A stretch of DNA of 64,000 nucleotides from a virus (IMGVR_UViG_3300035156_000198:9513-73512), one strand, 5' to 3'; positions 1,194 through 58,200 are shown, counted from the first letter of the stretch. Numbers and translations are program-made. The notes: generated by a model from the letters alone, not told the origin.

Positions 1194-1237
1194 AGCATAA
1201 CGCATGCCAGGTTAGACGCAAGCCCCTGTCTAGACCA
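1194..1237 (-). promoter_or_regulatory. SigA-type promoter TTGCGT-N16-TATGCT with upstream palindromic box
   Basis: -35 at 1221-1216 and -10 at 1199-1194 on the minus strand; CTGTCTAGACCA at 1226-1237. Confidence 0.6.
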
Positions 1238-1252
1238 GGGCTCGAGGATCGG

Positions 1253-1684
1253 TCAGAAGCCCCCCACGACGCGGCCGTCAAGCTCGCGGGCGATGGTGTC
1301 GAGCTGGGCCCGCTTCGGGCCGGTCACCGCCCAGTTCGTGCCGACCACCACGGGCGCGAAACCCTTGGCGATGTCGGCCCAGCTGTCGCGGGCCTCGGGC
1401 CCCTCGAACAGCCACATCTCCGCGGGGCCGCACGTCGCGCCGTCGCTGGTCAGCATCTCCAGCTCGCCGGCCGGCAGGTGCCGCGGCCGCCGGCCCTGGC
1501 AGGCGACCTCGGCCACCTGGTCGAGCGTGAGCAGCTCGGGCGCCGCCGCGCTGCTGCTGGCCACCGCCGAGGCCGACTCGGCGGCCTGGTCGACCGAGGG
1601 CCCAGCACCGCCGCCGCAGCTGGTGAGGGTCACGGCGGCCAGGAGGGCGGCCGCCGAGCGGGTGAGAGTGGTTCTGCGTGCCAT
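1253..1684 (-). CDS. Putative lipoprotein
   Basis: MARRTTLTRSAAALLAAVTLTS-C: basic N-terminus, hydrophobic stretch, lipobox LTSC, Ala/Ser linker. GAAAGG RBS. Confidence 0.7.
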   Translation of the reverse strand: MARRTTLTRSAAALLAAVTLTSCGGGAGPSVDQAAESASAVASSSAAAPELLTLDQVAEVACQGRRPRHLPAGELEMLTSDGATCGPAEMWLFEGPEARDSWADIAKGFAPVVVGTNWAVTGPKRAQLDTIARELDGRVVGGF

Positions 1685-1716
1685 GAGCTTGCCTTTCAGG
1701 TGAGCGGCCATCTGCC

Positions 1717-1733
1717 GTCAATGGGTAGTTGAC
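1717..1733. promoter_or_regulatory. GTCAA-N7-TTGAC palindromic operator, copy 1 of 5
   Basis: GTCAAtgggtagTTGAC, intergenic. Confidence 0.55.
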
Positions 1734-1751
1734 ACCAGAGAGCCGACGGTG

Positions 1752-1781
1752 AGGGGCCCCGAGCGGTTGCCCGGGGCCCCT
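1752..1781. terminator. GC-rich hairpin, probable terminator
   Basis: aggggccccg / cggggcccct inverted repeat just past the stop of the 1784 gene. Confidence 0.45.
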
Positions 1782-1783
1782 GG

Positions 1784-2209
1784 TCAGGGCCCGGAGACAG
1801 AAGCCTCCGGGTCGGTGTGATGGTCGGGGTCGGGGCACGTCGCCGGGTGACAGTGACGCGCGCACGCCTTGTTCTCGATGTGGCAGCGGCCGCACTCCGG
1901 CCGCGGCACGCCCGGGCCGACCAGGTGGGCGAGCAGCTCGCCGGTCACGGCCAGCATCGGCGACGAGAGACGTTGCGGCGGCCCAGCTGGGCGCACCCCT
2001 TCGTCGCCGGCGCCGGCCAGGCGGTAGTAGGTGATCACGAACGGCTCGGGCTGCAGCTCGGGCACGTGCCCGATGGTCCAGGTGCCGGTGTCGCCGGTGA
2101 CGATGACCAGGCCGGCGTCGAACCCGTGCCCGACGCCGGCGGCGTCGAGGGCCTCGACCACCGGGCCGAGCCCGAGCACGTCGGCCGGGGTCAGCTCGCC
2201 GGCGGTCAC
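1784..2209 (-). CDS. Hypothetical protein with C-terminal Cys/His cluster
   Basis: GTG start overlaps the upstream stop (GTGA); CGRCH...CARHCHPATC. Confidence 0.6.
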   Translation of the reverse strand: MTAGELTPADVLGLGPVVEALDAAGVGHGFDAGLVIVTGDTGTWTIGHVPELQPEPFVITYYRLAGAGDEGVRPAGPPQRLSSPMLAVTGELLAHLVGPGVPRPECGRCHIENKACARHCHPATCPDPDHHTDPEASVSGP

Positions 2210-2595
2210 CAGGTCACCGCCGCGGTCAGGTCGCGCCGGGCGATGAGGTCGAGGTCCTCGGTGTCCAGCTCGCGCGCGTGGTGGGCGCACAGCTGCACCG
2301 TGACGTGCCCCCACTTGTCGCGGCCCGGGTCGTCGCCGGGGTCATTGTCGGGCCCGTCGTGCAGGCACGCCGCCCGGTAGGCCTCCCATGCGGTGGCCTG
2401 GTCGACCCCGAGCGCGGTCATCTGCCCGTCGACCATCATGGCCACGTACGACGCGGCCTGGCCGTCGTCGTAGGTCAGCTCGACGGTGGCCCGGTCGCTG
2501 CACGGCATCGAGTCGCGGCTGCCGTCGAAGTCGGTGAAGTGGTCCTCACCCTCGCATCGGTCGGCGTCGGTGACGCGGGTGGTGTTCAGATTCAT
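2206..2595 (-). CDS. Hypothetical protein
   Basis: ATG at 2595 overlaps the upstream stop (ATGA); RBS GAAAGG. Confidence 0.6.
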   Translation of the reverse strand: MNLNTTRVTDADRCEGEDHFTDFDGSRDSMPCSDRATVELTYDDGQAASYVAMMVDGQMTALGVDQATAWEAYRAACLHDGPDNDPGDDPGRDKWGHVTVQLCAHHARELDTEDLDLIARRDLTAAVTW

Positions 2596-2885
2596 CGGGT
2601 GCTGCCTTTCGTGGTGGTGGTGGTGCGGTTGGCTTCGTGGTGCTCGGTGAGCCACGCGAGGGTGCCCTTCATGGTCTGGGCCTGCGCCGACTGGTGGTTC
2701 AGTCGGGCGCCGTCGGCGTCGAGCTGGCGGGCGATGGCCTCACGGGTGGCCTGGTCCTCGCCGGCGAGGTTGTCGGCTGCCCACTGGTAGCCCAGCCGGC
2801 GGTACTTGTCGCCGCGGCGGTGCTCGGCGTCGGCCGAGGCGTAGTCGCGGCCCTTGTGGTCGGTGCCGCGTGCCACGCCGGTCAC
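2592..2885 (-). CDS. Hypothetical protein
   Basis: 97 aa; 4-bp stop/start overlaps at both ends. Confidence 0.6.
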   Translation of the reverse strand: MTGVARGTDHKGRDYASADAEHRRGDKYRRLGYQWAADNLAGEDQATREAIARQLDADGARLNHQSAQAQTMKGTLAWLTEHHEANRTTTTTKGSTR

Positions 2886-3178
2886 TTGCCGAACTTCTGC
2901 TGGGCGGCCTGGCGGGTCATGCCCAGCTCGCGGCCGACCTCGGTCCAGCTGTAGCCGAACTCGCCGTCGTGCAGGCCCTTGGCCGCGGCGACCATGGCGG
3001 CGTCGATGTCGGCGCGGGCCTGTGCCAGCGCGGAGAGGGCCTCAAGGTCGCCGGCCTCGGCGCGGCGGGCCATGCCTCGGGCGACGCGGCCGATCATGGC
3101 GGCCATGTCGGGGGCCTCGTAGGACTTCTTGGCGCGCTTGGCGGTGGTGCGGGTGGCGGTGGTGGTCGTCGTCGTCAT
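2882..3178 (-). CDS. Helix-turn-helix DNA-binding protein
   Basis: C-terminal YSWTEVGRELGMTRQAAQQKFG is an HTH signature. Leaderless ATG 6 nt after a -10 box. Confidence 0.8.
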   Translation of the reverse strand: MTTTTTTATRTTAKRAKKSYEAPDMAAMIGRVARGMARRAEAGDLEALSALAQARADIDAAMVAAAKGLHDGEFGYSWTEVGRELGMTRQAAQQKFGK

Positions 3179-3184
3179 GTGTCT

Positions 3185-3249
3185 ATCTTGAGCCCTGGAG
3201 CTCGGAAACACAAGCCCTAGGCCCCATTAGTTTCTAGTGGCCTAGACCA
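3185..3249 (-). promoter_or_regulatory. Leaderless promoter TTGTGT-N17-CAAGAT plus TGGCCTAGACCA box
   Basis: Near-duplicate of the promoter at 37661-37701; box at 3238-3249. Confidence 0.65.
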
Positions 3250-3325
3250 CCCCCCGACCGTCTACCCTGGTGGGGGCCCCACACCCCCTACCACCAGGCA
3301 CGGGGCCCACGACGGAGGCACCACG

Positions 3326-3787
3326 ATGGGAAAGCGCGGACCCGCCAAGAAGCCAACGAACCTCGCCCTGCTCCACGGCGACCGACCCTCACGGGTCAAC
3401 CTCGACGCACCCCCCGGCCCCGACGGCCACGCCGAGCCACCCCCCGACATGCCCGCCGACGTGCGCGCCGTCTGGGACTACACCGTGCAGCAGCTCGACG
3501 TGATGCGGCTGGCCTCACCAGCTGACCGCGACGCCCTGGCCTGCTACTGCGAAGCGGTCGTGACCCACCGGAAAGCCTCGGCCCTGGTCGCCAAGGCCGG
3601 CGTCCTGGTGAGCCCCTCACGCGGCACCGTCCCGGTCAGGAACCCCGCCCTGGCCGCCCAACGCGACGCCGCCATCCTGGTGCGCGTGTACGCCCGCGAG
3701 TTCGGCCTGACCCCCTCGGCCCGGTCCGAGCTGACCGCCGGCGACCGCCGCGACACCGCCGGCAGTGCCGCCCGACTCCTGTCCTAG
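3326..3787 (+). CDS. terS: Terminase small subunit (P27 family)
   Basis: MGKRGPAKKPTNLALLHGD...PPPDMPADVRAVW...LACYC...RNPAL...EFGLTPSARSEL; directly precedes terL. Confidence 0.92.
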   Translation: MGKRGPAKKPTNLALLHGDRPSRVNLDAPPGPDGHAEPPPDMPADVRAVWDYTVQQLDVMRLASPADRDALACYCEAVVTHRKASALVAKAGVLVSPSRGTVPVRNPALAAQRDAAILVRVYAREFGLTPSARSELTAGDRRDTAGSAARLLS

Positions 3788-3789
3788 CC

Positions 3790-5478: not shown

Positions 5479-5498
5479 GCGCGAGGGAGCACCCCGAA

Positions 5499-5837: not shown

Positions 5838-5884
5838 CACCCCTGCCGGCCCCCGCAACCGACCGACCGAGAGAGGCGCCCACC

Positions 5885-6076
5885 ATGGCACCAGCACCCC
5901 GCAACTTCGATGAGGACACATCGAGCCCGACGTTCGGCCCAGCCATCGCCAACGTGACCGGCACGCCGGCCGCGACCTACGGGGCCCCCGAGCAGACCAT
6001 GCTCGCCGACCTCATCGCACGGGTGAACGCGATGAACGCCGTGCTCAAGGCCGCCGGGCTCACCGAGCAGGACTAG
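5885..6076 (+). CDS. Small protein resembling head decoration/fibre proteins
   Basis: 63 aa, RBS GAGAGG; C-terminal LADLIARVNAMNAVLKAAGL helix. Confidence 0.5.
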   Translation: MAPAPRNFDEDTSSPTFGPAIANVTGTPAATYGAPEQTMLADLIARVNAMNAVLKAAGLTEQD

Positions 6077-6081
6077 GGCCC

Positions 6082-15023: not shown

Positions 15024-18000
15024 GATAGGCCGCGGCGTCATCCCGGTTGGGCTCGATGACTCCCGGCTGAACCGTGACCTGTCTCGGGTCGGCGCCAACG
15101 TCAACAGCCACTTCGACAAGGTGGGCCGGCAGGCCGGCGGCGTCGGCGGCCGGCAGTTCGGCAGCGAGTTCTCACGCAACAGCAGCGGCGCGCTACGCGG
15201 GTCGACCAGGGCCATCGAGGCCGACGCCGACGACACCGGCCGCCGAGCTGGGCGGCGCATGGGCGGCTCGTTCTCAGGTGCCGTCGGTGGCCTCGCCGCG
15301 CGAGCTGGCGGCGCGCTCGGTGTGACCGTCGGGGTGGCCGCCGTCGGTGGGTTCGTGAAGCAAGCCGTCACCCTCGAAGCCGAGTTCGGCAAGACCATGA
15401 ACCTCATCCAAGCGACCACCGGGCTGCCGGCCGCCGGCATGAGGTCGCTGTCGGACCTGGCCCTGAAGATGGGCCGCGACACCGTGTTCTCCGCGTCCGA
15501 CGCGAGCGCGGCGATGCTTGAGCTGGCCCGCGGCGGCATGACCGCGGCGACCATCAAGGGCGGCGCGCTGCAGGGCACCCTGACGCTGGCCGCAGCTGGC
15601 GGCCTCGACATGGCCACCGCGGCGAACGTCGCGGTCAAGGCGATGGGCGCCTTCAACCTGCAGGGCCGCGACATGGACTCAGTGGCCGCCGCCCTGGCCG
15701 GCGCCGCGAACGCCTCGGCCGCGTCGGTCGGGGACTTGTCCATCGCGCTGTCTCAGACCGGCCTCGCCGCCAACGCTGTCGGGTTCTCCGTGCAGGAGAC
15801 GACCGGCATCCTGGCGGCGTTCAGCAACGCCGGCCTGAACGGGTCAGACGCCGGCACGTCACTGAAAACGATGCTGTCGAGCCTCACCCCGAGCACCAAG
15901 AGCGCGACCGAGGCGTTCCGCACGCTGGGCATCATCACCGAGGACGGCCGCAACCGGTTCATCAACGCCAACGGCACCTACAAGAGCGCGGCGCAGATAG
16001 CCGAGATTCTCAGGCAAGGCACCGTCAAGCTCACCGACGCGCAACGTAACCAGGCCATCAGGCAAGGTTTCGGCTCAGACGCCCAGCGGGCCGCGAATAT
16101 CCTGGCCAATGAGGGCGCCCGCGGGATCAACCGCATGGTCAAGGCCACCAGCGACCAGGGCGCCGCGCAGCGCACCGCCCAGGCCGCCATGAAGGGCACC
16201 GCCGGCGCCATCGAGTCGCTGAAAGGGTCCCTGGAGACCGCCACCCTCCGGTTCGGTCAGCTGATCCAACCGGCCGTCATCGGCGGGCTACGCCTGGCCA
16301 CCCGGGCCATCAACGGCATCGAGCCGGCCATCGGTCGGGTCGCCTCGGCGTTCCGCTCCGGGGAGGCCTCGACCGGCCAGTACGGCGCGATCATCAGGAA
16401 CACCGGCCGCGCCATCGGTGACTTCGTGGCCTCGGTGCTGCCCACTCTGCGCCGGGTCGGCCGCGAAATCGCCGGCACCGTCGGCCCGGCCCTACGCGAT
16501 ATCGGCCGCATGGTGATGACCGACCTGCTGCCGGCGTTTCAGCGGGTGCTGCCGATCATCGCGCCGGTGGCCAGGTTCATCATCCGGGTCATCGGCGGCG
16601 CCATCGTGGGGGCCATCAAGGGCGCTGTCCAGGTCATCAAGGGCATCGTGAACGTCATCGCCGGCGTGTTCAAGCTGGTGTCTGCCCTGGTGCGAGGCGA
16701 GTGGGGTGGCGCGTGGCGGGCCCTGGTGCAGATTATGAAGGGCGTCCTGCAGATCGTCGTCGGCGCGATCCGCGTGTGGTTCAACGTGGGCATCCTCGGC
16801 ATCTTCAAGGGCGGCGTCGTCCGGCTGCTGACCAGCTGGCGGGGCCTGTGGACCGGCGCCCGGCAAGTCGGGTCGAGGGCCATGGCGCTGCTCGGGCGCA
16901 TCATCGACGCCGGGTTCCGCGCCGTCGGCGCCATCTTCCGCGGCGCAGCTCGCATCATCGGCGGCATCTTCCGGGGCATGTTCACGCTGCTCGGGCGGCT
17001 GGCGACCGCCGGCTGGCGGGTGGTGTCGGGCATCTTCACCAGGTCGTTCACCGCGGTGCGAGGCATCGTGACCCGAGGGGTGACCGCGGTGACCGGGTTC
17101 TTCCGGGGCCTGTTCACCGCCATCGGCCGGCGCACATCTGACGGGTGGCGGAACCTGACTGGCCTGTTCCGCCGCGGCCTGGAAACCGTGCGCACCGTGA
17201 CCCGGCAGGTGCTCGACAAGGTGACCGGCATCTTCGCCGGCGCGTGGCGCAGCATCAAGGCCACCGGCGACCGGCTCCGGGGGCTGCTGACTGGCACCCT
17301 GCCGCGGGCGTTCCGCAGCGGCCGTGACGCCATCGGCCGCATCTGGGACGGCCTCAAGGGCGTAGCCAAGCGGCCTGTGCAGTTCATCGTGAACACCGTC
17401 TACATGAAGGGCATCTACCGCGTTGTCGCCGCCCTGCCGGGGAAGAACCCGCTGCCGCCGCTGCACTTCAAGCGCGGCGGGCCGGTGCCCGAGCACCTTG
17501 GCACCAAGGGCAAAGACTCGGTGCCGGCGCTGCTGATGCCGAACGAGCACGTGCTGACCGCCCGCGAGGTCGCCAAGGCCGGCGGCCACAAGGTCATCGA
17601 GGCATGGCGGCGGCGCATCATCGGCGGCAGCGGCTACCACCTGAAGGAAGCGCGGGCCGAGCGGCTCGCAGCTGGCGGCCCGGTGCAACGGTTCTGGCTC
17701 GGTGGTGGTGTCAAGCCCGCCGCCGGCTCGGTCAACCGGCACGGCGACTACTCGTTCGCCCGGTGGGCCGGCGACATCAACGAACCAGGGTCGGTCGACA
17801 TCGGGCACCCGGTGCGAGCCTGGAAGGCCGGCACGGTGTCGTTCGCCGGCTGGGGTGGCGGCGACTCGTACGGCAACTACATGAAGGTCAACCACGGCGA
17901 CGTGACGACCTACTACGCGCACCTGTCAGCGTTCGGGAAGCGACCCGGCACCCGAGTCAGGGCCGGCGAGCGCATCGGGTCCAAGGGCGGCACCGGCAAC

Positions 18001-33781: not shown

Positions 33782-33826
33782 CGGGGGCCTTTCGGGTGGG
33801 TGGTGGTGGTGGTGGTGAGGCCATTG

Positions 33827-34030: not shown

Positions 34031-34344
34031 GGCTGCCGCCCGCACAACGGGCACGAGTCGCCGTCGGGCACGGTGACGGTGCCCATGCCCGGGCAATCGT
34101 GGGCGACGTGCGGCCCGTTGCAGATCGACGCCGGGCACCCGTCGGGGTCGCACCAGTCGAGCAGCTCGGCGGTCAGCGCGATGGCGCCGTCGGGCTGCAG
34201 CTCGGCGGCGACAACCTCGGCGGCGACCGGCCCCGGCGCACCGGGCACCGTCATGGTCGGGGTCTGCCCCACCAGGCCGGCGGCCGCCGACGGCGCGAAC
34301 ACGTCGCCTGGTGTCTCGGGGTACATCCTGAACTCAACCCGCAT
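34027..34344 (-). CDS. Hypothetical protein
   Basis: 105 aa with RBS GAAGGGAG; Cys-rich C-terminus. Confidence 0.55.
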   Translation of the reverse strand: MRVEFRMYPETPGDVFAPSAAAGLVGQTPTMTVPGAPGPVAAEVVAAELQPDGAIALTAELLDWCDPDGCPASICNGPHVAHDCPGMGTVTVPDGDSCPLCGRQP

Positions 34345-35023
34345 CCCGGGCTCCCTTCGTGGTGGTGGCCGTGGCGCGGTGCTCGACGGCGCGCACCGTC
34401 GCCGCGTACCACTTCCGGCCGCCCTGCCCGGTCGGCACGGCGCCGGCGTTCAGATCGTTGGCGATGGCCTGGTATGACTTCCCGGCGGCGCGGGCCTCGA
34501 TGATGCCGGCGCGCACCGTCTCCGGGACGGTGATCGACCGGCCCAGCGCGACGCCCTGTTTCTGCAGCTCGCCGAGGGCGGCCTTCGTGCGCTCGCCGAT
34601 GATGCGCCGCTCCCATTGGGCGAACACCGCCATGACGCCGGCGAGCACTTCCCCGGCGGGGCTGGTCAGGTCCACGCCCAGGTCGAGGGCCACCAGGTTC
34701 CACCCGCCCTCCCTGGCCTCGGCGGTGATCGTGGCGAAGTCCAGCAGCGACCGGGAGAGCCGGTCGAGCTTGGCGACCATCAGGGTGCCGGCGTCGCCGT
34801 CGCGCACCAGGTCGAGCGCGTCGGCGAGCTGGGGCCGGCGGGCCCGAGACTTCCCCGACGCGACATCGACACGCACGGGCTCGAGAAGCCGCCAACCGCG
34901 GCGGTCGCACTCGGCCCGGATGGTGGCCTCCTGCGCGGCGAGCCCTAGCCCGCGTTCGCCTTGTTCGTCGGTGCTGACCCTGATGTACCCGACGACGACC
35001 TCGGGGCCGACGCGGCCGGTCAC
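34334..35023 (-). CDS. Small serine recombinase (resolvase/invertase family)
   Basis: GYIRVSTDEQ (catalytic Ser), SGKSRARRPQL, VAKLDRLSRS, AQWERRIIGERTKAAL, then a short HTH-like region; about 229 aa. Confidence 0.9.
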   Translation of the reverse strand: MTGRVGPEVVVGYIRVSTDEQGERGLGLAAQEATIRAECDRRGWRLLEPVRVDVASGKSRARRPQLADALDLVRDGDAGTLMVAKLDRLSRSLLDFATITAEAREGGWNLVALDLGVDLTSPAGEVLAGVMAVFAQWERRIIGERTKAALGELQKQGVALGRSITVPETVRAGIIEARAAGKSYQAIANDLNAGAVPTGQGGRKWYAATVRAVEHRATATTTKGARDAG

Positions 35024-37408: not shown

Positions 37409-37628
37409 GGTGCCGGGCACATCGCCGTCGGCTCCCGTGACTTACGCAGCTCCGGGGGTCGGCGGCCCCTGGTGTGACATCGCCGGGAATGTTATTCGGC
37501 TCGATGCCACAGGGGCACCGTGCCATTGACGTATCTGTCCGTACGGGTGCACACTGATCGAGTGTCGGCCCCGGCCAGGGTTTCCTCCCCCGGCCTCCCT
37601 GCTGTCGGGGTCGACGCCTGTCAGGTGG

Positions 37629-37698
37629 TGGTCTAGCCCACCTAAACTATCGGGGCGCTGGGCTTGTGTTTCAGGGCTCCGAGGCTGACAATAGACAC
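37629..37698 (+). promoter_or_regulatory. TGGTCTAGCCCA box plus leaderless promoter TTGTGT-N17-GACAAT
   Basis: Near-duplicate of 3178-3249 on the opposite strand. Confidence 0.65.
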
Positions 37699-37947
37699 AT
37701 GCACACCACCACCGCCCAGAACAAGGCACACCGCACCGACATCGCCTGGCACAAGAGCGCGGGCCGCAAGTTCCAGGCCGCCGGCGAGCACTTCACCAGC
37801 GAGTACCTCAACCCCTTCACCGGCCAGGCGATCCGCAAGAGCTGGCGCATGACCGGCCGCGACTGGTTCATCTTCGACGCCGCCGGCCAGGTCATCGGCC
37901 GCGCGCACTCCCTCACGTGGGCCAAGCTCGACGCGGCGGCCGCGTGA
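37699..37947 (+). CDS. Hypothetical early protein, leaderless
   Basis: ATG 6 nt after the -10 box. Confidence 0.65.
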   Translation: MHTTTAQNKAHRTDIAWHKSAGRKFQAAGEHFTSEYLNPFTGQAIRKSWRMTGRDWFIFDAAGQVIGRAHSLTWAKLDAAAA

Positions 37948-38680: not shown

Positions 38681-38761
38681 GTCGTCGTAACGCAAGGTGC
38701 CCCCGTCGCCGCGGCCGATAGCCGCTGCTTGTGTGCGGCCACTGGGCGGACAGTGGCCCCC

Positions 38762-39325
38762 ATGCCCGCCGTCGAGGTCACCGAGAAGCACGTCGACCAG
38801 GTGACCGCCATCGCGCGCCGGGTCGGCGAGCTGCCCGCCTGCCGACTGGCCGGCGGGGTCGATGAAGCGATCTCCCAGGCCTACGTCGTGCTGTGGGACC
38901 TCGCCCTGAGCTGGGACCCCGACCGTGGTGTCCCGTTCGAGGTCTACGTGTCCATGCACACCCGGCACCGGCTGCTGGACTGGGTGCGCCGCGAGGTCGG
39001 CCGCGCCGGCACCCCCCGGTTGAAGATCATCGCCGAGTCGGCGTGGTTCGAGGCCGTCGACCCCTACGACCCGGAGCGGGACATCGAGCTGGGCGCCGGC
39101 CCGGAGATGACCGCGTTCGCCCGCGAGACTCTCGCCGAGGTCGTCGGCGCCGCGAACGGCAACCTCTCGCGCCGGCAACGCGACGTACTGTTCGCCGAGC
39201 TGGAAGCCGCCGGCGGCATCGCCGAGGTCGCCGACGACTGGGGCATGTCGACGGCCACGGCGATGACTCACCGCTCCCAGGCCCGCCGGCGGCTACGTGA
39301 GGCCCTCACCCGCGGCCCACCCTGA
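38762..39325 (+). CDS. Phage-encoded sigma-70 family sigma factor (regions 2 and 4)
   Basis: DEAISQAYVVLWDLALSWDPDRGVPFEVYVSMHTRHRLLDWVRRE (region 2); LSRRQRDVL...IAEVADDWGMSTATAMTHRSQARRRLREAL (region 4). Start uncertain (38729 or 38762). Confidence 0.75.
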   Translation: MPAVEVTEKHVDQVTAIARRVGELPACRLAGGVDEAISQAYVVLWDLALSWDPDRGVPFEVYVSMHTRHRLLDWVRREVGRAGTPRLKIIAESAWFEAVDPYDPERDIELGAGPEMTAFARETLAEVVGAANGNLSRRQRDVLFAELEAAGGIAEVADDWGMSTATAMTHRSQARRRLREALTRGPP

Positions 39326-44796: not shown

Positions 44797-44886
44797 CTGT
44801 CCGTACGCCTGTCCGCACGGTAGCACCGGTCTAGGCCACCTGTCCGTGGGTCGATGGTTGCGGGGGCTGGACAAAGGGGCTACGTT
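44797..44886. promoter_or_regulatory. Divergent control region: CTGTCCG direct repeats, CGGTCTAGGCCA box, TTGCGG-N17-TACGTT promoter
   Basis: Repeats at 44797, 44809 and 44840; box at 44827-44838; -35 at 44858, -10 at 44881. Confidence 0.55.
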
Positions 44887-44935: not shown

Positions 44936-45181
44936 GTGACGGCCACAGATGACACGCCCGACGCCGGCGGCGATGGCGCCATGATGACCAGCACCCAAGC
45001 CGCCGAGCAGCTCGGCGTGTCGGTGATGACGCTGCGCCGGTACGTCGAGGCCGGCGAGCTGCGCGCGTCACGCATCGGCCCGAAGAAGCTGATCCGCATC
45101 CGGCCGGCCGACCTGGCCGCCTACGTCGAGGCGAACCAGACCCCGACACCGGCCGCGCCGGCCTCGCCGGCCTCGGCCTGA
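44936..45181 (+). CDS. Excisionase-like (MerR-type) HTH protein
   Basis: MMTSTQAAEQLGVSVMTLRRYVEAGELRASRIGPKKLIRIRPADL; AGGAGG RBS before the GTG at 44936. Confidence 0.85.
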   Translation: MTATDDTPDAGGDGAMMTSTQAAEQLGVSVMTLRRYVEAGELRASRIGPKKLIRIRPADLAAYVEANQTPTPAAPASPASA

Positions 45182-49945: not shown

Positions 49946-50172
49946 CCGCGGGCGGCTACGGCTGGGCCGACGTGGTGTCCGCCGTCGCCGACATCAGCAT
50001 CGACCACGTGCACGACTGGCGGCCGCCGCCCGAGTGGTCCGCGCGCGAGACTAGCTTCCGCGTCTGCACGAGCTGCCAGGCCACCGGGTTCGCCGAGTAC
50101 GTGCCGACGCGCCCGACCGTCGAAGCCTCACCAGGTGGTGACCCGACCGGTGCTAACGTCACGGGCGCTTGA
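49942..50172 (+). CDS. Hypothetical protein
   Basis: GTGA coupling; HVHDW...CTSC. Confidence 0.45.
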   Translation: MTAGGYGWADVVSAVADISIDHVHDWRPPPEWSARETSFRVCTSCQATGFAEYVPTRPTVEASPGGDPTGANVTGA

Positions 50173-50324
50173 CTTGTTTGTACCAGGGGTCGACTCTGGG
50201 CCGAGTCAGACCAACGTAGACCGGGGTCGGTGGTTCGTTGTGGAGCTGCAGCGCGCGAGGGCAGGGCCCCCGCGCACCGTCGCCCATGCGACGCCCGCCT
50301 GCCCCCCCTCGGGAGGGGAGCGCC

Positions 50325-50855
50325 ATGGCCCGTGACCACAGTCGCATCTTCGTGTCCATCTGGACCGACCCTGCGTTCCTGGCCCTCGACCGCGACGCGC
50401 AACGCATGTACCTGGTGCTGCTGAGTCAACCCCGGTTGAGCTACTGCGGGGTGCTCGACTACGTGCCGGCGCGGCTGGCGCGGCTGGCCGCTGACGAGGA
50501 CGAGGCATCGGTCGACCATGCTGTCAAGCTGCTCGAACCTGACCGGTTCGTCGTGGTCGACCGGTCGACTCAAGAGCTGCTGATTCGGTCGTTCGTGCGC
50601 CGCGACGGCCTGCTGAAAACCCCGAACGTGACGAAAGCGATGGTCACCGCGCGGGCCCTGGTGATGAGTGAGCAGCTGCGCGATGTCATCGACGCCGAGC
50701 TGGCCCGGGCCTACCAGGAAGATCCGACGATGGCCGGGTGGGCCGGGTCGGGGTCGCAACCTGGTGGCCTGCTGGTCGCTGATGTCGAGCTGTACGCCAA
50801 GGTCATCGAGGGGTCGGCGAACGGCTCACTCAACGGTTCGGGGGCGACCGCATGA
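50325..50855 (+). CDS. Replication initiator (RepA/lambda O-like) N-terminal domain
   Basis: MARDHSRIFVSIWTDPAFLAL...AQRMYLVLLSQPRLSYCG...LLIRSFVRRDGLLKTPN; RBS GGGGAG. Confidence 0.75.
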   Translation: MARDHSRIFVSIWTDPAFLALDRDAQRMYLVLLSQPRLSYCGVLDYVPARLARLAADEDEASVDHAVKLLEPDRFVVVDRSTQELLIRSFVRRDGLLKTPNVTKAMVTARALVMSEQLRDVIDAELARAYQEDPTMAGWAGSGSQPGGLLVADVELYAKVIEGSANGSLNGSGATA

Positions 50856-51050
50856 GGGGTTACTTTAGGGGTTCGGCGAAGGGTTCCGGCAAGGGTTGCG
50901 CGAGCCCCTCGGGCAAGGGTCGGCGCAACCGTTCGGCGAACCCTAGGGCAACTCCTTACTCCTTACTCCTTACTCCTAACTCCTCTCTCCCTGTGGTTGC
51001 GTTAACCAATCCAATCAAGTCTGTAACGTGCGAGGTTTTTTTTGGATTGG
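50809..51050. other. Putative replication origin: iteron-like repeats, ACTCCTN heptamers, AT-rich tract
   Basis: GGGTTCGGCGAA-like repeats at 50809, 50867, 50881, 50917 and 50929; five heptamers at 50951-50985; T8 at 51036-51043; CCAATCCAA/TTGGATTGG inverted repeat. Confidence 0.6.
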
Positions 51051-51067
51051 AGACGACGAAATGCTGA
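50852..51067 (+). CDS. Rep linker-like ORF (possibly frameshifted part of the initiator)
   Basis: GSAKGSGKG repeats and PYSLLLTPNS resemble phage Rep linkers. Confidence 0.35.
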   Translation: MRGYFRGSAKGSGKGCASPSGKGRRNRSANPRATPYSLLLTPNSSLPVVALTNPIKSVTCEVFFGLETTKC

Positions 51068-51615
51068 CCGAAGTGCAAATCGCTCGGCTCGCCGCGGCCG
51101 TGTCGCACCTGCGACCCGAGTGGCCGCAAGCGTCGCTCCACTCGTTCATCAGCAGGAACCTCGCCGGCTACACGGTCCGCGACGCTGCGGTGATGCTCAC
51201 GTGGGTGGCCGTCGACCCCGACACCGAGACGCCGGCCCGGATGCTTGAGGCCGGCCCGTGGCGGCAGACCGCGACGCTGAACGCCGCCCCTGGCACCAGG
51301 TCGCCGCACGACCGGCAGCGCACGTGCTCGGTGTGCGCGCTCGCCGAGGTCGACTGCCGCTCGAAGTGGTCGACTGACCACCCGTTCGTGTCGGTGGCCG
51401 AGGCCCGCGCCGTCGCCCTGGCCGACCGCCGGCGAGCTGTCGACGCCGCGGCCGCTGCCCGAGCTGCGCTGCGACCGGTGCCGGCCGAGCTGTCCCCTGA
51501 GCCCGTCGGCGGCGGTGAGCCCGACGCCCCCGCGTGCGTACCCCCCGCCGCGGGCGAGCCCCCGTCGAGCCCCGCCGTCGGCGGCCCCGCCGAGCCCGCC
51601 GAGGCCGGCCGATGA
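51061..51615 (+). CDS. Hypothetical protein, replication-associated by position
   Basis: LAAAVSHLRPEW...TWVAVDPDTETPARMLEAGPW; CSVC. Confidence 0.65.
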   Translation: MLTEVQIARLAAAVSHLRPEWPQASLHSFISRNLAGYTVRDAAVMLTWVAVDPDTETPARMLEAGPWRQTATLNAAPGTRSPHDRQRTCSVCALAEVDCRSKWSTDHPFVSVAEARAVALADRRRAVDAAAAARAALRPVPAELSPEPVGGGEPDAPACVPPAAGEPPSSPAVGGPAEPAEAGR

Positions 51616-51875
51616 GCACCCGCCTGGAGCAGCTGTACGCCCTACGCCGCAAGGTGGCCCGGGCGATCATCGCCGAGGAAGCCAAGGAACGCCGCTACCG
51701 GCCGGCGCCAACCGTCACCGCCACCGACTCGGAGATTCGGGACTGGGCCCGAGCCGAGGGCATCGACGTGAACCCCCGCGGCCGGCTGCGCGAGGAAGTG
51801 CGCGCCGCCTACGTCGAGGCCCACCGCGACCCGCTGCTGGGGTTCGACGCGACCAGGCGGCAGGCCCATGGTTGA
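51612..51875 (+). CDS. Lsr2-like DNA-binding protein (C-terminal domain)
   Basis: SEIRDWARAEGIDVNPRGRLREEVRAAYVEAH; lacks the Lsr2 N-terminal dimerisation domain. Confidence 0.82.
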   Translation: MSTRLEQLYALRRKVARAIIAEEAKERRYRPAPTVTATDSEIRDWARAEGIDVNPRGRLREEVRAAYVEAHRDPLLGFDATRRQAHG

Positions 51876-53360: not shown

Positions 53361-53641
53361 CCACCGCGCTGCTGATGGTCGCCGGCCTGGTCGCCGTCGT
53401 CGCCGCGTTCGCGCTGGTCGCCCCCTGGCAGCACCGGCACCGCGACGACGACTGGCAGGCCCGCGGCGCGTGGCGGTACGACGAGTGCAGCTGCGGCGCC
53501 CGCCGGGTGCGGCGCCTCTACAGCAACTTCATGTCCCCGGTCGAGGGTGACTGGCCGCGGCCGGTCGACCGGCACGGCATGCCGGTGCACGACACCGGCT
53601 GGCAGCGGCCGGCCGGCGACCACGACTGGCGACCGGTCTAG
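53357..53641 (+). CDS. Membrane-anchored protein
   Basis: N-terminal TM helix; HRH...CSCG. Confidence 0.55.
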   Translation: MTTALLMVAGLVAVVAAFALVAPWQHRHRDDDWQARGAWRYDECSCGARRVRRLYSNFMSPVEGDWPRPVDRHGMPVHDTGWQRPAGDHDWRPV

Positions 53642-53683
53642 ACCGCGGCACGCCGGAAACGTGAGGGGCGCTAGACTGGCGAT
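53634..53683 (+). promoter_or_regulatory. CGGTCTAGACCG box plus leaderless -10 TAGACT
   Basis: Box at 53634-53645; -10 at 53672-53677; ATG at 53684. Confidence 0.55.
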
Positions 53684-53959
53684 ATGACCACCACCAAGAG
53701 CACCGCCACCAGCACCCCGACCACCGCGACCCTCACCGCCGCCGAGGCGTTCGTCCAGGCATGCCGCGCCGGCGGCTACCAGGCCCGCATCGTCACCACC
53801 GCGGAGTTCCCCGAGTTCACCGAGCGGCCCGGCGCCCGCCGCACCGACGCCGGCGACGAGTACGTGCACACCTACGACGACGAGCCGTGCGACCTGCCCG
53901 GCGACCGCGCCGACGACGAGCACATCTGCGGCCACGGGTTCGGGGTGAGGCTGGCATGA
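53684..53959 (+). CDS. Hypothetical protein, leaderless
   Basis: 91 aa. Confidence 0.6.
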   Translation: MTTTKSTATSTPTTATLTAAEAFVQACRAGGYQARIVTTAEFPEFTERPGARRTDAGDEYVHTYDDEPCDLPGDRADDEHICGHGFGVRLA

Positions 53960-54189
53960 GCCGCCGCGCGCGGCCGACCCGCGCCGAGATAGCGGCCGCC
54001 TTCAACGCCCGGTGCACGTTCGGCTGCCCGAGCTGCAGCCGAGCGTGCACGTTCGCCGGCGGGTACAACCATCGGTTCGACTGCTGCGGCGAGGTCGTCG
54101 CCCACGTCATGGAGAACCTGGTGCGCCGCGTCTCGGGGGTGCCGGCGTACGCCGTCGGTGTCTCGACCACCACCAGGCCGCCGTCGTGA
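53956..54189 (+). CDS. Cys-rich hypothetical protein
   Basis: ATGA coupling; CTFGCPSC..AC; near-duplicated TGCACGTTCG segments. Confidence 0.5.
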   Translation: MSRRARPTRAEIAAAFNARCTFGCPSCSRACTFAGGYNHRFDCCGEVVAHVMENLVRRVSGVPAYAVGVSTTTRPPS

Positions 54190-54543
54190 GGGTCTGGGAC
54201 ATCGAGCGCGACTGTGGTCACACCACCCGGCACGACCACGTGCCGACGGTGCCTGACTACCCGTGCCCGTCCGGTTGCGTCGAGGACGAGCTGCCCGTGC
54301 AGCTGCTGGTTCAAGCCCGAGCCCGACCCCGACCCCGAGCCGGCACCGGAGCTGCCGGCCGTCGACCCCGAGCCGACGACGCCACCGCCGGCCAAGGTCG
54401 AGCGGGCCCCCGTGCGACCCGCGGCCCGCCGCCCGCCCCCGACACCGCCGCGCGGCCGCGCACCCGCCGGCCCGCTGACCCGAGTCGACCCCGAAGCCCT
54501 GGCGGCCTTCAACCGCGGCACCGAGCGAGCCCGCCGTGACTGA
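54186..54543 (+). CDS. Hypothetical protein, reading frame ambiguous
   Basis: The 54186 frame looks coding at the 5' end and the 54214 frame at the 3' end. Confidence 0.3.
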
Positions 54544-54707
54544 CACCACCGACCGGCCGGTGCACGTCATGGACTGGTGCCAACCCTGGCACGGGCCGGC
54601 GTCCCACGCCCGATGTCGCCGGTCGTGGGCCATCGCCGGCCGCACCGGCCGTTGCGGCTGCAGCTGTCACACCACCACCACCACCACCACCGAAGGGGCG
54701 GCACACC

Positions 54708-54986
54708 ATGAGGCGCTACGTCTCCGTCAAGCGCGCCGCGAGCGGCACGTTCACCACCGTCACCGTCTCCCTCATCGACGGCGACCTGAGCGCACGATGG
54801 TCGGTGAAGACCTACATCGGCAACGTCGGCGCCGCCACGGCCAACGCCGACACCTACGCCCGCCGCGCGCTAGAGGAAATCCGGGTGCAGCTCGACGCCG
54901 CCGAGGCCGCCGGCGACGACACCACCGAGGGCGACACGCCGGCGCCGGTGGTGCTCGCCGACGCCCGGCCACGTCTGGCAAAGTGA
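54708..54986 (+). CDS. Hypothetical protein
   Basis: RBS GAAGGGG after a CAC-rich leader. Confidence 0.6.
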   Translation: MRRYVSVKRAASGTFTTVTVSLIDGDLSARWSVKTYIGNVGAATANADTYARRALEEIRVQLDAAEAAGDDTTEGDTPAPVVLADARPRLAK

Positions 54987-55017
54987 AGCCAAGCCAGTAG
55001 CCGACCCCTACTAGCCC

Positions 55018-55060
55018 GCGAGCCCGGCCCCCCTCCCAGCGGGGCCGGGCTCGCTCCGTT
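55018..55060 (+). terminator. Hairpin terminator
   Basis: 14-bp stem gcgagcccggcccc / ggggccgggctcgc followed by TCCGTTT. Confidence 0.65.
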
Positions 55061-55076
55061 TCACAGGGAGGCGCGC

Positions 55077-55424
55077 GTGCCGCGACGGGCGAACCGGCGG
55101 TGCCCCATGTGCCGCACCGTGGTGCCCACCGGGCAAGGTTGCGCGACGTGCCGCGACCGCCGGGAGGCCCGGTCGCCGAGCTTCAACTACTCCACCGCCT
55201 ACTGGTCGCGCCGGTCACGGGCGTTCCTGGCCCGCCGACGCTGGTGCAAGGTCTGCGGGAAACGCGCCAAGGTCGCCGACCACTACCCGACCAGCCGCCG
55301 CGAGCTGGTGCGCCAAGGGGTGCCCGACCCCGACGCTGATGAGTTTCTGCGGCCGCTGTGCCTGGAGTGTCATAGTCGGGCGACGGCGGCCCGGCAAGGT
55401 GGCGGCTGGCATCACCCCGAGTAG
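55077..55424 (+). CDS. HNH endonuclease (terminase-associated type)
   Basis: CPMC..C..C, YW.RRSRAFL, CKVC...ADH...LRPLCLECHSRAT. Confidence 0.85.
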   Translation: MPRRANRRCPMCRTVVPTGQGCATCRDRREARSPSFNYSTAYWSRRSRAFLARRRWCKVCGKRAKVADHYPTSRRELVRQGVPDPDADEFLRPLCLECHSRATAARQGGGWHHPE

Positions 55425-55441
55425 GGCGGCGGGTCGGCTGC

Positions 55442-56026
55442 ATGTGCCAGGACTGCTACAAGCCACCACCGCGGCACTTCGCCCGCATGGTCGAGCCGCT
55501 GCGCGCGTGGCGGGTGCGCCGCAAGTTCGGGGACCGATCCCTGGACCTGCTGATGCTGGCCGTGGTGTGGCTGGTCGTCGGCTACATGATCACCGTCAAC
55601 GATCCCGAGCCCGACGTGAAGGTGCCGATCGAATACCTCGGCACCCCGGTGCGCATCGCCGTGTGGTGGATCGGCGCCGCCGCCGCCGCCATCGCGGCGT
55701 TCCGGGTGACCCGCTACGACCAGTGGGGGTTCGCTGCGCTGATGGTCGGGCCGCTGCTGCGCTGCCTGTCGTACACGTTCGCGTGGTTCACCGGCGTGGT
55801 CGCCGACCCGCTGCAACGGTGGTTCGGTGTCATGCCCGACGGGGACATCGGCATCTGGCCGGAGGCTGTCGTCTGGGCCGTCGTGTCCGGCATCGTCTAC
55901 CGCCTGGCCAAGCGGCCAGAGATCCCGTGCACCGATGAGCTGCGCGCCGGCCTCACCGCATCCCAGCTCGACACCCAACAGCTGACCCCGCGGCCGCCGT
56001 TGGGGCAACGTGACGGTGACCAATGA
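55442..56026 (+). CDS. Multi-pass membrane protein
   Basis: About four hydrophobic helices. Confidence 0.7.
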   Translation: MCQDCYKPPPRHFARMVEPLRAWRVRRKFGDRSLDLLMLAVVWLVVGYMITVNDPEPDVKVPIEYLGTPVRIAVWWIGAAAAAIAAFRVTRYDQWGFAALMVGPLLRCLSYTFAWFTGVVADPLQRWFGVMPDGDIGIWPEAVVWAVVSGIVYRLAKRPEIPCTDELRAGLTASQLDTQQLTPRPPLGQRDGDQ

Positions 56027-56457
56027 GTCCCGGCGACTGGGTAGAGGTCGTCGGCGGCATCCTGGTGGCCATCGGCGCCATCGGCGGCGCATGGGTCACC
56101 GCCCGCGCCGGCTCCCGAGCTGCTGACACCACCCGCGATGTCGGCCTGGCCACCGTCCAGGTCACCCGTGAGGGCGCCTTCATCGCCCAGCTGCAGGAAC
56201 GGCTGACCGCCGTGGAAACCGACGCGCTGGCCTGCGCCCAGCGCGTCGATGACATGCGCCGGGTGGTCTACAGCCTGCAGGACCGAAACGTCATTCTCGA
56301 GCGGGCCGAGCTCCGGTACCGCGAGCTGATCGGTCGGCTCCGCGACTTCGTGCGGCAGCTGCTCGCCGCCTGGCCCCGCGACGCGACACCACCGCCGCCG
56401 CCGCCGAGGGTGCCGGTCGGCCTGTTGGAGGACGCCGACCGCGACGCCGTGAAGTAA
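56023..56457 (+). CDS. Single-TM coiled-coil protein
   Basis: N-terminal TM, then a heptad-rich segment and a poly-Pro stretch. Confidence 0.7.
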   Translation: MSPGDWVEVVGGILVAIGAIGGAWVTARAGSRAADTTRDVGLATVQVTREGAFIAQLQERLTAVETDALACAQRVDDMRRVVYSLQDRNVILERAELRYRELIGRLRDFVRQLLAAWPRDATPPPPPPRVPVGLLEDADRDAVK

Positions 56458-56468
56458 CGTACGGACAC

Positions 56469-57014
56469 ATGACGCTGAACGCGCCGGCGCGCACGCTGGT
56501 CGGCCCCGGTGACGTGGTGTGCACCCGCAACCCGAAGGGGTGGCCGGCGAGGTTGATCCGGCTCGGCGCTGCGCTGAAGGACAAGCCGAACACCGTGAAC
56601 CACGTCATCGTCGTGCACCACCGCGACGACGCCGGCGTCATGTGGGGCATCGAGGGCCGGCCCGGTGGTGTCGGGTGGGTCGACATGCGCACCGCGATGG
56701 CCGGCGCGTACACCACCCACAACGCCGACCAGCCGAAGACCCCCGAGCAGCGCGTCCAGGTGTGCGAGGTCATCGCCGGCATGCTCGGCACCCCGTACGA
56801 CTGGGAAGGCATCGCCCTCATCGCCGCCGAGGCCGTCGGGGTTCAGCAGCTGTGGGCGTCGACCAGGTGGGGCACCGCGCCGCCGGCGCATGTGGTCTGC
56901 TCGGCGCTGGCCGACTGGGGCTACGAGCGTGTCGGGCTCCGGTCGCCGGCGCCGGACCGCACGTGCGCGCCGTGGGACTGGGACGCGTTCAATCGTGAGA
57001 GGCTTTGGGCATGA
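56469..57014 (+). CDS. Permuted papain-like NlpC/P60 (YiiX/YebB-like) hydrolase
   Basis: PGDVV, NHVIV (His), GTPYDW, VCSAL (Cys after His, the permuted order). Confidence 0.75.
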   Translation: MTLNAPARTLVGPGDVVCTRNPKGWPARLIRLGAALKDKPNTVNHVIVVHHRDDAGVMWGIEGRPGGVGWVDMRTAMAGAYTTHNADQPKTPEQRVQVCEVIAGMLGTPYDWEGIALIAAEAVGVQQLWASTRWGTAPPAHVVCSALADWGYERVGLRSPAPDRTCAPWDWDAFNRERLWA

Positions 57015-57397
57015 CCACCTATGCCGCGGTGCATCTGGCCTGTGACCAGGCCAAGGTGCGCCGGGCGGCCCGCCTGGTCGGCGACCAGCTGGAAGCCGAG
57101 CGGCTGGCGCGCATCGCCGCCCGCGACGCCGCCAAGCCGCCGGCAGCTGCAGCTCGGCCGCCGGCGGCTCGACCCGCCAAGCGTGAGCCCGTCACTGCCC
57201 GTAGCCCCCGACCGGTCGAGGACACCACCAGGTGCACGTTCCTCGGCTGCCCGGCCCCGCCGGTCAGCAAGGTGAAGCCGCACTACGGCCGACCCTGGTT
57301 CGGCTGCAAGGCCCACGCGCCGGCGATGGCTGACGCCCTGAGCATCGGTCAGTCGCCCGAGCGCGGCGCCAAGGTCGTCCCCCTGCCCACCGCGTAA
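57011..57397 (+). CDS. Hypothetical protein
   Basis: ATGA coupling; C-terminal CTFLGC...C.AH. Confidence 0.55.
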   Translation: MTTYAAVHLACDQAKVRRAARLVGDQLEAERLARIAARDAAKPPAAAARPPAARPAKREPVTARSPRPVEDTTRCTFLGCPAPPVSKVKPHYGRPWFGCKAHAPAMADALSIGQSPERGAKVVPLPTA

Positions 57398-57425
57398 CCC
57401 AACCCACCACCAGGAAGGCACCAGC

Positions 57426-57839
57426 ATGGCCAAGGACCCGAGCAAGGAAACCCCCGAGGGCGCCGAGCAGCCGCCCAGCGCGAACGACGGGCCAGCCGCC
57501 CGCGACGAGTCACCCACCGAGGGCGGCAAGCCTGACGCGGCCGCGGCCAAGGGCGCGGTGTACCTGCCGACGCTGCCCGACGGGTGGAGCTACGCGCTGC
57601 GCGTGCAGGGCGACGGCAAGGAGGTGTCCGGGGAGGTCGTCATCGGCGGCGACGGTCGGTTCGTGGCTCGGTTCGACACCCCCGACGGGCGCCGCGAGCA
57701 GCCGCACCCGTCGTTCGGTGACGCGGCGAAGTCGCTGGCCGAGGGCATCAAGGCGCTGGACAAGGTGCAGCGCGACGAGGCCAAGCTGATCGAGGCCCGG
57801 GAGACGGCGCTGGCCCGGCTTGGCCCGGCCGGCCGCTGA
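57426..57839 (+). CDS. Hypothetical protein
   Basis: RBS GGAAGG. Confidence 0.6.
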   Translation: MAKDPSKETPEGAEQPPSANDGPAARDESPTEGGKPDAAAAKGAVYLPTLPDGWSYALRVQGDGKEVSGEVVIGGDGRFVARFDTPDGRREQPHPSFGDAAKSLAEGIKALDKVQRDEAKLIEARETALARLGPAGR

Positions 57840-57841
57840 CG

Positions 57842-57988
57842 GTGCTGCACGTGGTCGTGTCCTGGTCGTGTGTCTCCCAGTGCGGTGAGCACGGCCAGGG
57901 CCCGACCGCCGACAAGGACGCCGAGCGGCACACCACCAAGGTCGGCCACGCGACTGTCACCAGCGCGACGCCGGCTCCGCGGCCGTGA
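57842..57988 (+). CDS. 48-aa putative zinc-binding peptide (not in ORF track)
   Basis: WSCVSQCGEHG...AERHTTKVGH. Confidence 0.4.
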   Translation: MLHVVVSWSCVSQCGEHGQGPTADKDAERHTTKVGHATVTSATPAPRP

Positions 57989-58150
57989 CCGACCCGGCCT
58001 GGCGGGCGAGGGTGCGGCGGGCGGCGCTATGGGGGCCGTGGGCCTGGCAGGCCACGGTGCGGCATGGCCGCGTCGAGCTGGGGCATGTGTCGGCCTGGTC
58101 GCTGGCCGGCGTGGCGCGCAAGGCCCGCCGGGTGCCGCGTCACCGCCGCC

Positions 58151-58200
58151 CGGTCTAGACCAGAACTTGCGTGGCCTAGGGCCCCTGATATAGTAGCGGC
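58151..58200 (+). promoter_or_regulatory. CGGTCTAGACCA box plus leaderless promoter TTGCGT-N16-TATAGT
   Basis: Box at 58151-58162; -35 at 58167; -10 at 58189; ATG at 58201. Confidence 0.7.

Follow-up and report, generated by a model that had tools for sequence, protein, structure and literature searches.

Repeated operators let phages switch whole gene sets together. The repressor of phage phiC31 acts at conserved inverted repeats at the early promoters, the cluster A mycobacteriophages have their stoperators, and the repressor gene of such systems is known; as a general rule, repeated phage operators are bound by a phage-specified protein. This work describes a comparable array in a 64,000-nt window, which corresponds to bases 9513-73512 of the 74,174-bp virus record IMGVR_UViG_3300035156_000198 in IMG/VR. 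The array consists of a short palindrome, YGGTCTAGACCR, that is present in eight copies in the genome, six within the window and two just upstream of it. It resembles the phiC31 and stoperator systems in that many copies of one short operator candidate are spread over actinophage early regions at similar promoters, here eight copies in fixed registers, and it differs from them in that neither a repressor nor an integrase of normal length is recognisable. We conclude that the array is genuine and clearly delimited: it is a family of promoter-associated operators, ordinary in kind, from a new phage lineage, and the palindrome is almost certainly the docking site of a regulator. Our preferred reading, held tentatively and at somewhat less than even confidence, is that the eight palindromes are operators bound by a phage-specified protein that cannot be recognised by its sequence. 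The palindrome would define the early regulon of an actinophage lineage whose unusual cargo comprises a TraB-like translocase, genes for thymine hypermodification and a sigma factor of its own. If a phage protein binds it, it would also represent a new operator-regulator pair, with compact, co-regulated leaderless promoters that may prove useful in high-GC hosts.

Host and plasmid regulators provide the other points of comparison. The DasR-responsive elements (dre) of Streptomyces, like the NagR sites of Bacillus, are bound by GntR/HutC-type regulators. The dre consensus is A(G/C)TGGTCTAGACCA(G/C)T (PMC4398421), and in the NagR-DNA structure the guanines G-5 and G-4 are contacted by Arg38 and Arg48, with a wing contact at -7 (PMC4333415). 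The early promoters of phage phi29 carry boxes for the host regulator Spo0A (PMC2731898), and in Streptomyces plasmids TraB is always accompanied by a TraR of the GntR type (PMC4447253). Positions below are those of the window, unless they are given as genome positions, which count along the 74,174-bp record (L009).

An earlier note on this DNA had listed six matches to TGGTCTAGACCA, and all six are present with at most two mismatches: 10/12 at 1226, 44827 and 53634, and 11/12 at 3238, 37629 and 58151. A seventh match at 16136 was set aside as chance, as it lacks CTAG and lies inside a gene of tape-measure size. At this threshold, 7 matches were observed against 1.06 expected, and 0 of 100 shuffles reached 7. 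The two copies upstream of the window, at genome 6308 and genome 7252, both have a perfect 10-bp core, and the latter is a perfect 16-bp palindrome. The exact core GGTCTAGACC occurs in 4 copies, whereas Markov simulation of first and third order predicts 0.025-0.055, an excess of about 70-160-fold; with at most one mismatch, 9 copies were observed against 1.5-2.8 expected. The consensus of the eight sites is S-Y-GGTCTAGACC-R-S, with 10/10 core matches in four sites and 9/10 in the other four. A phage matrix derived from the eight sites gives them 17.2-20.9 bits, whereas the next best window of the genome reaches 11.8 bits and almost all runners-up are intragenic; the eight sites therefore form a discrete family. 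Across 201 Actinomycetota genomes the core occurs 0-5 times per genome, 8-9-Mb genomes included, and its density in the phage is roughly hundredfold above that in the bacterial genomes.

The placement at gene boundaries that had been proposed for the six sites extends to all eight, each of which is intergenic or lies on the stop codon of the upstream open reading frame (ORF). All eight are confined to non-structural (early-type) regions. A chance clustering of a CTAG-containing word can practically be dismissed. CTAG is indeed rare in the phage (49 copies, where base composition predicts 188), so that copies tend toward non-coding DNA, but the four exact 10-mers stand against an expectation that rounds to 0.03-0.06, and the spacing to start codons is fixed. 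The prediction that the motif would be commoner than chance thus held, in that no shuffle or simulation equalled the observed counts.

The sites keep a regular geometry relative to the predicted promoters. With the A of ATG counted as +1, the 12-mer ends exactly 38 nt before ATG at genome 6308, genome 7252, window 53634 and window 58151, and the palindrome occupies -50 to -39 (centre -44.5) at these four promoters; by the same hexamer logic, the palindrome at 1226 is also centred at about -44.5. The spacings given in the earlier note were reproduced: at 1226 and 58151 the distance from the centre to TTGCGT is 10.5 bp, and to TTGTGT it is 30.5 bp at 3238 and 29.5 bp at 37629, where the note had said about 30 bp. 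In all, five palindromes are centred 10.5 bp ahead of a -35-like hexamer. The distal sites at 3238 and 37629 lie 20-21 bp, or two helical turns, beyond the proximal register, and the distal site at 44827 lies about 16 bp beyond it.

Six of the associated ATG codons each stand 6 nt after a NANNNT hexamer (CAAGAT three times, GACAAT, TAGACT and TATAGT), of which TAGACT and TATAGT alone are full TANNNT hexamers. A TTG-type hexamer is found 16-17 nt upstream of the -10 in 5/6 of these promoters, 53634 being the exception. No purine-rich ribosome-binding site precedes the six ATGs, and most other phage genes have GAAAGG or GAGAGG. Because of the NANNNT hexamer 6 nt before ATG, without a ribosome-binding site, the six palindrome-linked mRNAs are probably leaderless. 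The sequence of all six genes follows the actinobacterial leaderless pattern, with a -10 ending ~6-7 nt before the start and no Shine-Dalgarno sequence, and we infer the promoters and leaderless starts from this pattern. Of the starts mapped in M. tuberculosis, three quarters have TANNNT, and leaderless genes make up 26% of its genes (PMC3898074).

Translation starts throughout the genome are flanked by ACC-repeat tracts, for instance at 3158-3178 (minus strand), 37699-37720, 53684-53705 and 58201-58222, and also at 1150-1190 (minus strand), 33782-33826 (minus strand) and 54660-54707. The six leaderless genes all begin MT/H-T-T-T (ATG ACS ACS ACC ACC GCC), and their proteins are unrelated. Many leadered genes, and the leader downstream of 1226, carry CACCACCACC just 5' of the ribosome-binding site. 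The tracts may form a G-poor, unstructured translation-initiation region or an enhancer.

Duplication of promoter cassettes accounts for part of the resemblance between sites. Outside the palindrome, the genome 6308 and genome 7252 cassettes are 76% identical and the 3238 and 37629 cassettes 70%, and the 58151 cassette matches the 6308/7252 pair at 64-66%, above every shuffle. The 53634 cassette is similar to the others at the level of shuffled sequence only, yet its palindrome is perfect and likewise stands 38 nt from the ATG. The comparison therefore indicates that palindrome and position are under a constraint of their own, beyond mere copying. This independent constraint is our main argument for proposing protein binding. 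It also bears on the improbable explanation that there is no dedicated regulator and that the palindrome is intrinsic to a duplicated promoter cassette, as an element for the C-terminal domain of the RNA polymerase alpha subunit (alpha-CTD), for a phage sigma factor or for DNA shape. The partial homology of the cassettes, their shared ACC-rich initial transcribed region and the presence of a phage sigma factor would suit such an element. However, a perfect dyad symmetry of 10-12 bp is unexpected of an upstream promoter (UP) or sigma-read element, conservation of the palindrome far exceeds that of the cassette, its distance is kept in the otherwise dissimilar 53634 cassette, no -35-like motif is shared 16-17 nt to either side, and the palindrome stands in either of two registers to the -35. 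Two other roles for the palindrome were tried and rejected. As a -10 of the extracytoplasmic function (ECF) type (GTCTA), it lacks a shared -35 at the right distance, and as a terminator hairpin it would have a stem of 3-4 bp only.

A site for DNA transactions, involving a serine recombinase, ParB-like/5mYOX thymine modification, or packaging or replication proteins, is highly improbable. The genome does encode a small resolvase-type serine recombinase at 34334-35023 and a ParB_N protein that adjoins a Tet/JBP dioxygenase, the 3238 and 37629 cassettes are inverted repeats ~34 kb apart, and site 3238 adjoins the terminase genes. Serine-recombinase sites, however, are 26-30 bp long with spaced half-sites, unlike a contiguous 12-mer, and the fact that the palindromes keep strict register with the -35/-10 hexamers and the start codons speaks for transcription.

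The likeness to dre had led the earlier note to propose that the host regulator DasR binds the sites, and this proposal stood in part. The palindromes are non-random, promoter-proximal and located in non-structural regions. They share with dre the same core and two guanines per half-site, as well as a conservation that is contiguous across the dyad. The phage core GGTCTAGACC matches the dre 10-bp core exactly, and of the 32 G-5/G-4 positions, which are those read by NagR, 31 retain the guanine (G-5 in 15/16 and G-4 in 16/16 half-sites). The flanks and matrix scores, by contrast, do not fit. At position -6, the phage half-sites have C in 8, T in 8 and A in 0 of 16, whereas validated dre half-sites have T in 28, A in 13, G in 1 and C in 0 of 42; at position -8, A/T occurs in 4/16 phage and 34/42 validated dre half-sites. 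The largest, Streptomyces-sized genomes of the 201-genome sample mostly carry T/A at -6. Furthermore, the CTAG centre and the bases at +/-2 are invariant in the phage and variable in dre, the phage flanks are G+C-rich and those of dre A/T-rich, and the phage sites stand in fixed registers upstream of the -35 where dre positions vary. An unverified comparison motif, the palindrome YGGCCTAGGCCR, is likewise a CTAG-centred 12-mer with Y-6/R+6 as here, but with C/G instead of T/A at +/-3.

The dre matrix was built from 21 S. coelicolor sites validated by electrophoretic mobility shift assay (PMC4398421 Table 1), a species that may not be the phage host. Scored on their own matrix by leave-one-out, the validated sites reach 13.1-23.2 (median 20.6). 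The phage sites score 15.5, 14.7, 12.1, 11.8, 9.5, 9.1 and 8.8, with one below 8, which is the perfect 16-bp palindrome at genome 7252. Only 2/8 phage sites (3238 and 58151) fall within the validated range, and 6/8 score below the weakest validated dre. A scan with this matrix, one of the checks that the earlier note had suggested, gave weak enrichment over simulated sequence: 4 against 1.0 matches at 12 bits and 12 against 5.9 at 8 bits. The motif is, by these comparisons, dre-like in its core and unlike real DasR sites of G+C-rich genomes in the distinguishing flanks. The structure suggests that the base at -6 is not read directly, so DasR binding is possible.

Binding by host DasR, or by another GntR/HutC regulator of the host or of a resident element (e.g. 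a TraR/KorA-type repressor of a plasmid or an actinomycete integrative and conjugative element), is thus a serious contender, if a doubtful one. Early transcription would then track glucosamine-6-phosphate (GlcN-6P)/N-acetylglucosamine-6-phosphate (GlcNAc-6P) or a related signal. Besides the identity of the 10-bp core with the dre consensus core (PMC4398421), the retention of the NagR-read guanines (PMC4333415), the two sites within the dre score range and a conservation that spans the entire 12 bp in the manner of GntR operators, this explanation draws on the phage's own gene content. A six-frame search of the whole 74,174-bp record for PF00392 (GntR) and PF07702 (UTRA) returned no match at E <= 1, and Pfam scans of the 60 called proteins gave no GntR/UTRA domain. 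The apparently complete genome thus holds neither a GntR/UTRA protein nor a classical repressor, and a host HutC-type binder therefore stays in play.

The use of host Spo0A boxes at phi29 early promoters offers a precedent for a phage that relies on a host master regulator (PMC2731898). If DasR is the binder, the likeness lies in several host-regulator sites beside early promoters of a phage without a classical repressor, by which infection would be tied to host physiology. The two cases differ in that Spo0A boxes are 7-bp and non-palindromic, with binding and effect established experimentally, whereas here the motif fit is imperfect. The phage also has a TraB-like gene without TraR, and one palindrome, a GntR-style operator candidate at 44827, lies upstream of the FtsK/TraB-like operon, which recalls the kil-kor control by TraR/KorA (PMC4447253). 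Plasmids, however, have TraR beside traB, their sites are 12-14-bp repeats of another sequence, and 7/8 phage sites are unrelated to the traB-like operon. Apart from the flanks at -6, the G+C-rich surroundings, the invariant +/-2 and the low matrix scores, a host regulator is disfavoured by the relatives, which lack the motif. In addition, the virion DNA may bear bulky thymine modifications (Pfam ParB_N and Tet_JBP hits) that would hinder a host factor. The stronger proposal that host DasR, or a sister HutC regulator, decides whether infection proceeds, through eight dre-core operators on early leaderless promoters, appears unlikely. DasR control may couple to the amino-sugar demand of the phage for its predicted thymine hypermodification. 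Should DasR bind, this would be the first Streptomyces-type phage that reads host amino-sugar/cell-wall status, and phage development would be tied to the nutrient signal governing sporulation and antibiotic production. Should it decide infection, it would be an actinomycete counterpart of the use of Spo0A by phi29.

We favour a phage protein over canonical DasR because the flank preferences differ from those of dre. The distribution of the motif points the same way. When the palindrome-plus-leaderless-start pattern and two cassette words were scanned in viral contigs, they were found in this phage only. Within the reach of these scans, the motif is lineage-specific, which favours a phage-specified binder. 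Near-identical assemblies, 99.7-100% identical, hold too few single-nucleotide polymorphisms (SNPs) for a constraint test, and 0 SNPs fall in any palindrome. In related contigs, the equivalent upstream place is taken by a single GTCTAGAC, a single TGGTGCTAGCACCA or GTAAAC-N5-GTTTAC, and these other palindromes suggest the fast turnover expected of phage-specific operator-regulator pairs.

Under the preferred reading of a phage-specified binder, each palindrome would be a conserved upstream module of a promoter that is most likely read by host RNA polymerase, and the resulting transcripts would be early and usually leaderless mRNAs. A symmetric dimer would sit at about -50 to -39 at five promoters, with a footprint of about -52 to -37 that touches and abuts the -35 hexamer; at the other three promoters it would sit 1.5-2 helical turns (16-21 bp) farther upstream. 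The bound dimer could gate all non-structural transcription units together. Repression, which is somewhat more likely than activation, could act by hindering sigma region 4 and alpha-CTD and could serve early shut-off or maintenance.

Several results weigh against this reading or parts of it. The exact match to the 10-bp dre core has to be taken as a coincidence. The 20-21 bp phasing of sites 3238 and 37629 and the absent -35 at 53634 would suit an activator equally well. Measured against the E. coli consensus the putative promoters are weak, and a scan for this consensus found no promoter at any palindrome site; the promoter calls therefore rest on the actinobacterial pattern. A GGGGCSCTRGGC block 20-24 bp downstream was considered as a weaker second operator and rejected, as the phage matrix gave it 3.4 bits at 58151 only. 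Moreover, no binder candidate emerged from the three recognisable helix-turn-helix (HTH) proteins, none of which is tied to the motif by relatives, and six-frame searches found no HTH_3, HTH_31 or RHH_1 domain. The most obvious of the three, which the earlier note had put forward as an alternative to DasR, is a 98-aa HTH protein (2882-3178, minus strand; phrog_686 'HTH DNA binding protein'). It is encoded by the first gene of the leftward early operon and starts MTTTTTTA. Its HTH is C-terminal, its AlphaFold model has four helices (predicted local distance difference test, pLDDT, 89.7), and a structure search with this model gave weak sigma-region-4/Fis-like matches only (E > 1). The protein has 18 homologues with 36-68% identity, among which the recognition helix is nearly invariant, and two of the homologue contigs are syntenic with this phage. 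No palindrome array was found in the contigs of these homologues, the 55-68% identical copies included. Since the recognition helix is kept where the array is absent, this protein is a poor candidate for the binder, and the proposal in the note was not borne out. The other two HTH proteins, of the AlpA/Xis type, are poor fits; one is the AlpA-like protein at genome 7589-7900, and the other is the Xis-like protein, which was the only protein found with regular expressions for GntR-like or generic HTH motifs.

Further DNA-binding candidates fared no better. The ParB_N protein beside the Tet/JBP dioxygenase (59860-60609; Pfam) was rejected, since ParB proteins of the 5mYOX-associated kind belong to a clade without a DNA-binding domain (PMC13229309). 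The first genes of the cassettes were considered as hidden DNA binders and likewise rejected; one had an Sm/Hfq-like look and another gave no result. The former is the first gene behind the 7252 cassette (genome 6800-7213, minus strand), for which language-model features and an Atlas model gave an Sm/Hfq-like or ROF/DUF3247-like beta-barrel likeness with low scores, to be taken as a lead only. The phage also encodes an Lsr2-like protein (51612-51875, plus strand), whose Lsr2 DNA-binding domain marks it as a phage mimic of a xenogeneic silencer.

The phage is an uncultured, high-GC actinobacterial phage of a new lineage, which has so far been met in metagenomes alone. The record has a G+C content of 72%. 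A second assembly from ENA, independent of this record and 74,570 bp long, matches it at 99.98-100% identity across the 20 kb compared. By coordinate arithmetic the two share their end base, and the 74,174-bp genome is therefore probably complete. The second assembly carries a ~380-bp insertion (L013:17028-17408) relative to genome 5661-5677, in the leftward small-gene arm. No close relative was found by megablast among 50,697 phage records, and the nearest terminase of a cultured phage, that of Streptomyces phage Chymera, has 52% identity. Searches with the terminase and a DUF932 protein recovered the same phage or distant contigs only in IMG/VR, and nothing useful among GTDB genomes. The layout is based on rough gene calls from third-position G+C content (GC3), from which the 60 called proteins were taken to Pfam and PHROG scans. 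The structural block occupies the plus strand at 3326-32252, the leftward early arm runs from 3178 into the DNA upstream of the window, and other non-structural blocks extend from 32249 to the end; the non-coding share of the genome is ~14%.

The individual palindromes, listed here without strand, differ in their surroundings. At 1226-1237 (18.6 bits with the phage matrix) the palindrome reads TGGTCTAGACAG toward the leftward DUF932 gene (126-1148, minus strand; Pfam). The putative promoter (1194-1221, minus strand) has TTGCGT at 1216-1221, beginning 4 nt past the palindrome, a 16-nt spacer and TATGCT at 1194-1199. The DUF932 mRNA is leadered, with an ACC-rich 5' region followed by a GAAAGG ribosome-binding site. 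The palindrome TGGCCTAGACCA at 3238-3249 has the top dre-matrix score of the eight, 15.5, and lies where the leftward early operon and the terminase-small gene (3326-3787) diverge. Its leftward cassette (3179-3237, minus strand) comprises a GGGGCCTAGGGC block at 3214-3225, TTGTGT at 3208-3213 and CAAGAT at 3185-3190, 6 nt after which the ATG at 3178 follows without a ribosome-binding site. The palindrome is 59 nt before this ATG (centre about -65.5). Between it and the terminase-small start, an 8-bp inverted repeat CCTGGTGG...CCACCAGG with a 17-nt loop (3270-3305) could be a packaging or late-promoter signal.

The palindrome TGGTCTAGCCCA at 37629-37640 heads the rightward operon that holds the phage sigma factor gene. 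It stands 58 nt before the putative leaderless ATG at 37699 (centre about -64.5), and its cassette (37641-37701, plus strand) contains GGGGCGCTGGGC at 37652-37663, TTGTGT at 37664-37669 and GACAAT at 37687-37692. The sigma-70-family gene (38753-39325, plus strand) was identified by Pfam Sigma70_r2 (E 5.5e-7, above cut-off) and probably serves as a middle/late switch. At 44827-44838, the palindrome CGGTCTAGGCCA is bordered by CTGTCCGYACGG repeats and lies in the divergent region between a leftward membrane/FtsK-TraB-like operon and a rightward Xis-like/RecET operon. The predicted promoter (44858-44886, plus strand) begins 19 nt after the palindrome and has TTGCGG, a 17-nt spacer and TACGTT. The palindrome is centred about -60.5 before a leadered Xis/MerR-type HTH gene with a GTG start (44936-45181, plus strand; HTH_17, E 3.5e-13). 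Copies of CTGTCCGYACGG occur at 37535-37546, 44797-44808 and 44809-44820, with a partial copy at 44839-44850. They are limited to the two main divergent control regions, beside the 37629 and 44827 palindromes, and may be the operator of a different regulator, possibly the Xis-like HTH protein encoded next to them.

The palindrome CGGTCTAGACCG at 53634-53645 is a perfect 12-mer whose TAG terminates the upstream ORF. Its promoter region (53646-53686, plus strand) has TAGACT at 53672-53677, 6 nt before the putative leaderless ATG at 53684, and no TTG-type -35. The TAG of the palindrome CGGTCTAGACCA at 58151-58162 (dre-matrix score 14.7) is likewise the stop codon of the upstream ORF. The cassette that follows (58163-58203, plus strand) has TTGCGT at 58167-58172, a 16-nt spacer, TATAGT at 58189-58194 and a putative leaderless ATG at 58201, 38 nt after the palindrome (centre -44.5).

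Six exact GTCAA-N7-TTGAC palindromes mark module boundaries, at 1717, 13599, 24372, 39339, 59741 and genome 7273. The last is 9 nt upstream of the 7252 palindrome, an arrangement that suggests the order terminator or second site, operator, promoter. A ~1-kb gap without a convincing ORF (50085-51099) includes an A/T-rich stretch and, immediately ahead of the gene at 51100, a hairpin that has a T-run (CCAATC...TTTTTTTTGGATTGG); the gap may represent an origin, a terminator or a non-coding RNA. A tRNA-Pro(CGG) predicted by ARAGORN at 54319-54403 (minus strand) occupies a 518-bp gap of a rightward operon, opposite to the surrounding genes. Finally, a caspase-family peptidase C14 gene (genome 2631-4318, plus strand) immediately precedes the gene for the GH25 lysozyme; for an endolysin, such a neighbour is unusual.

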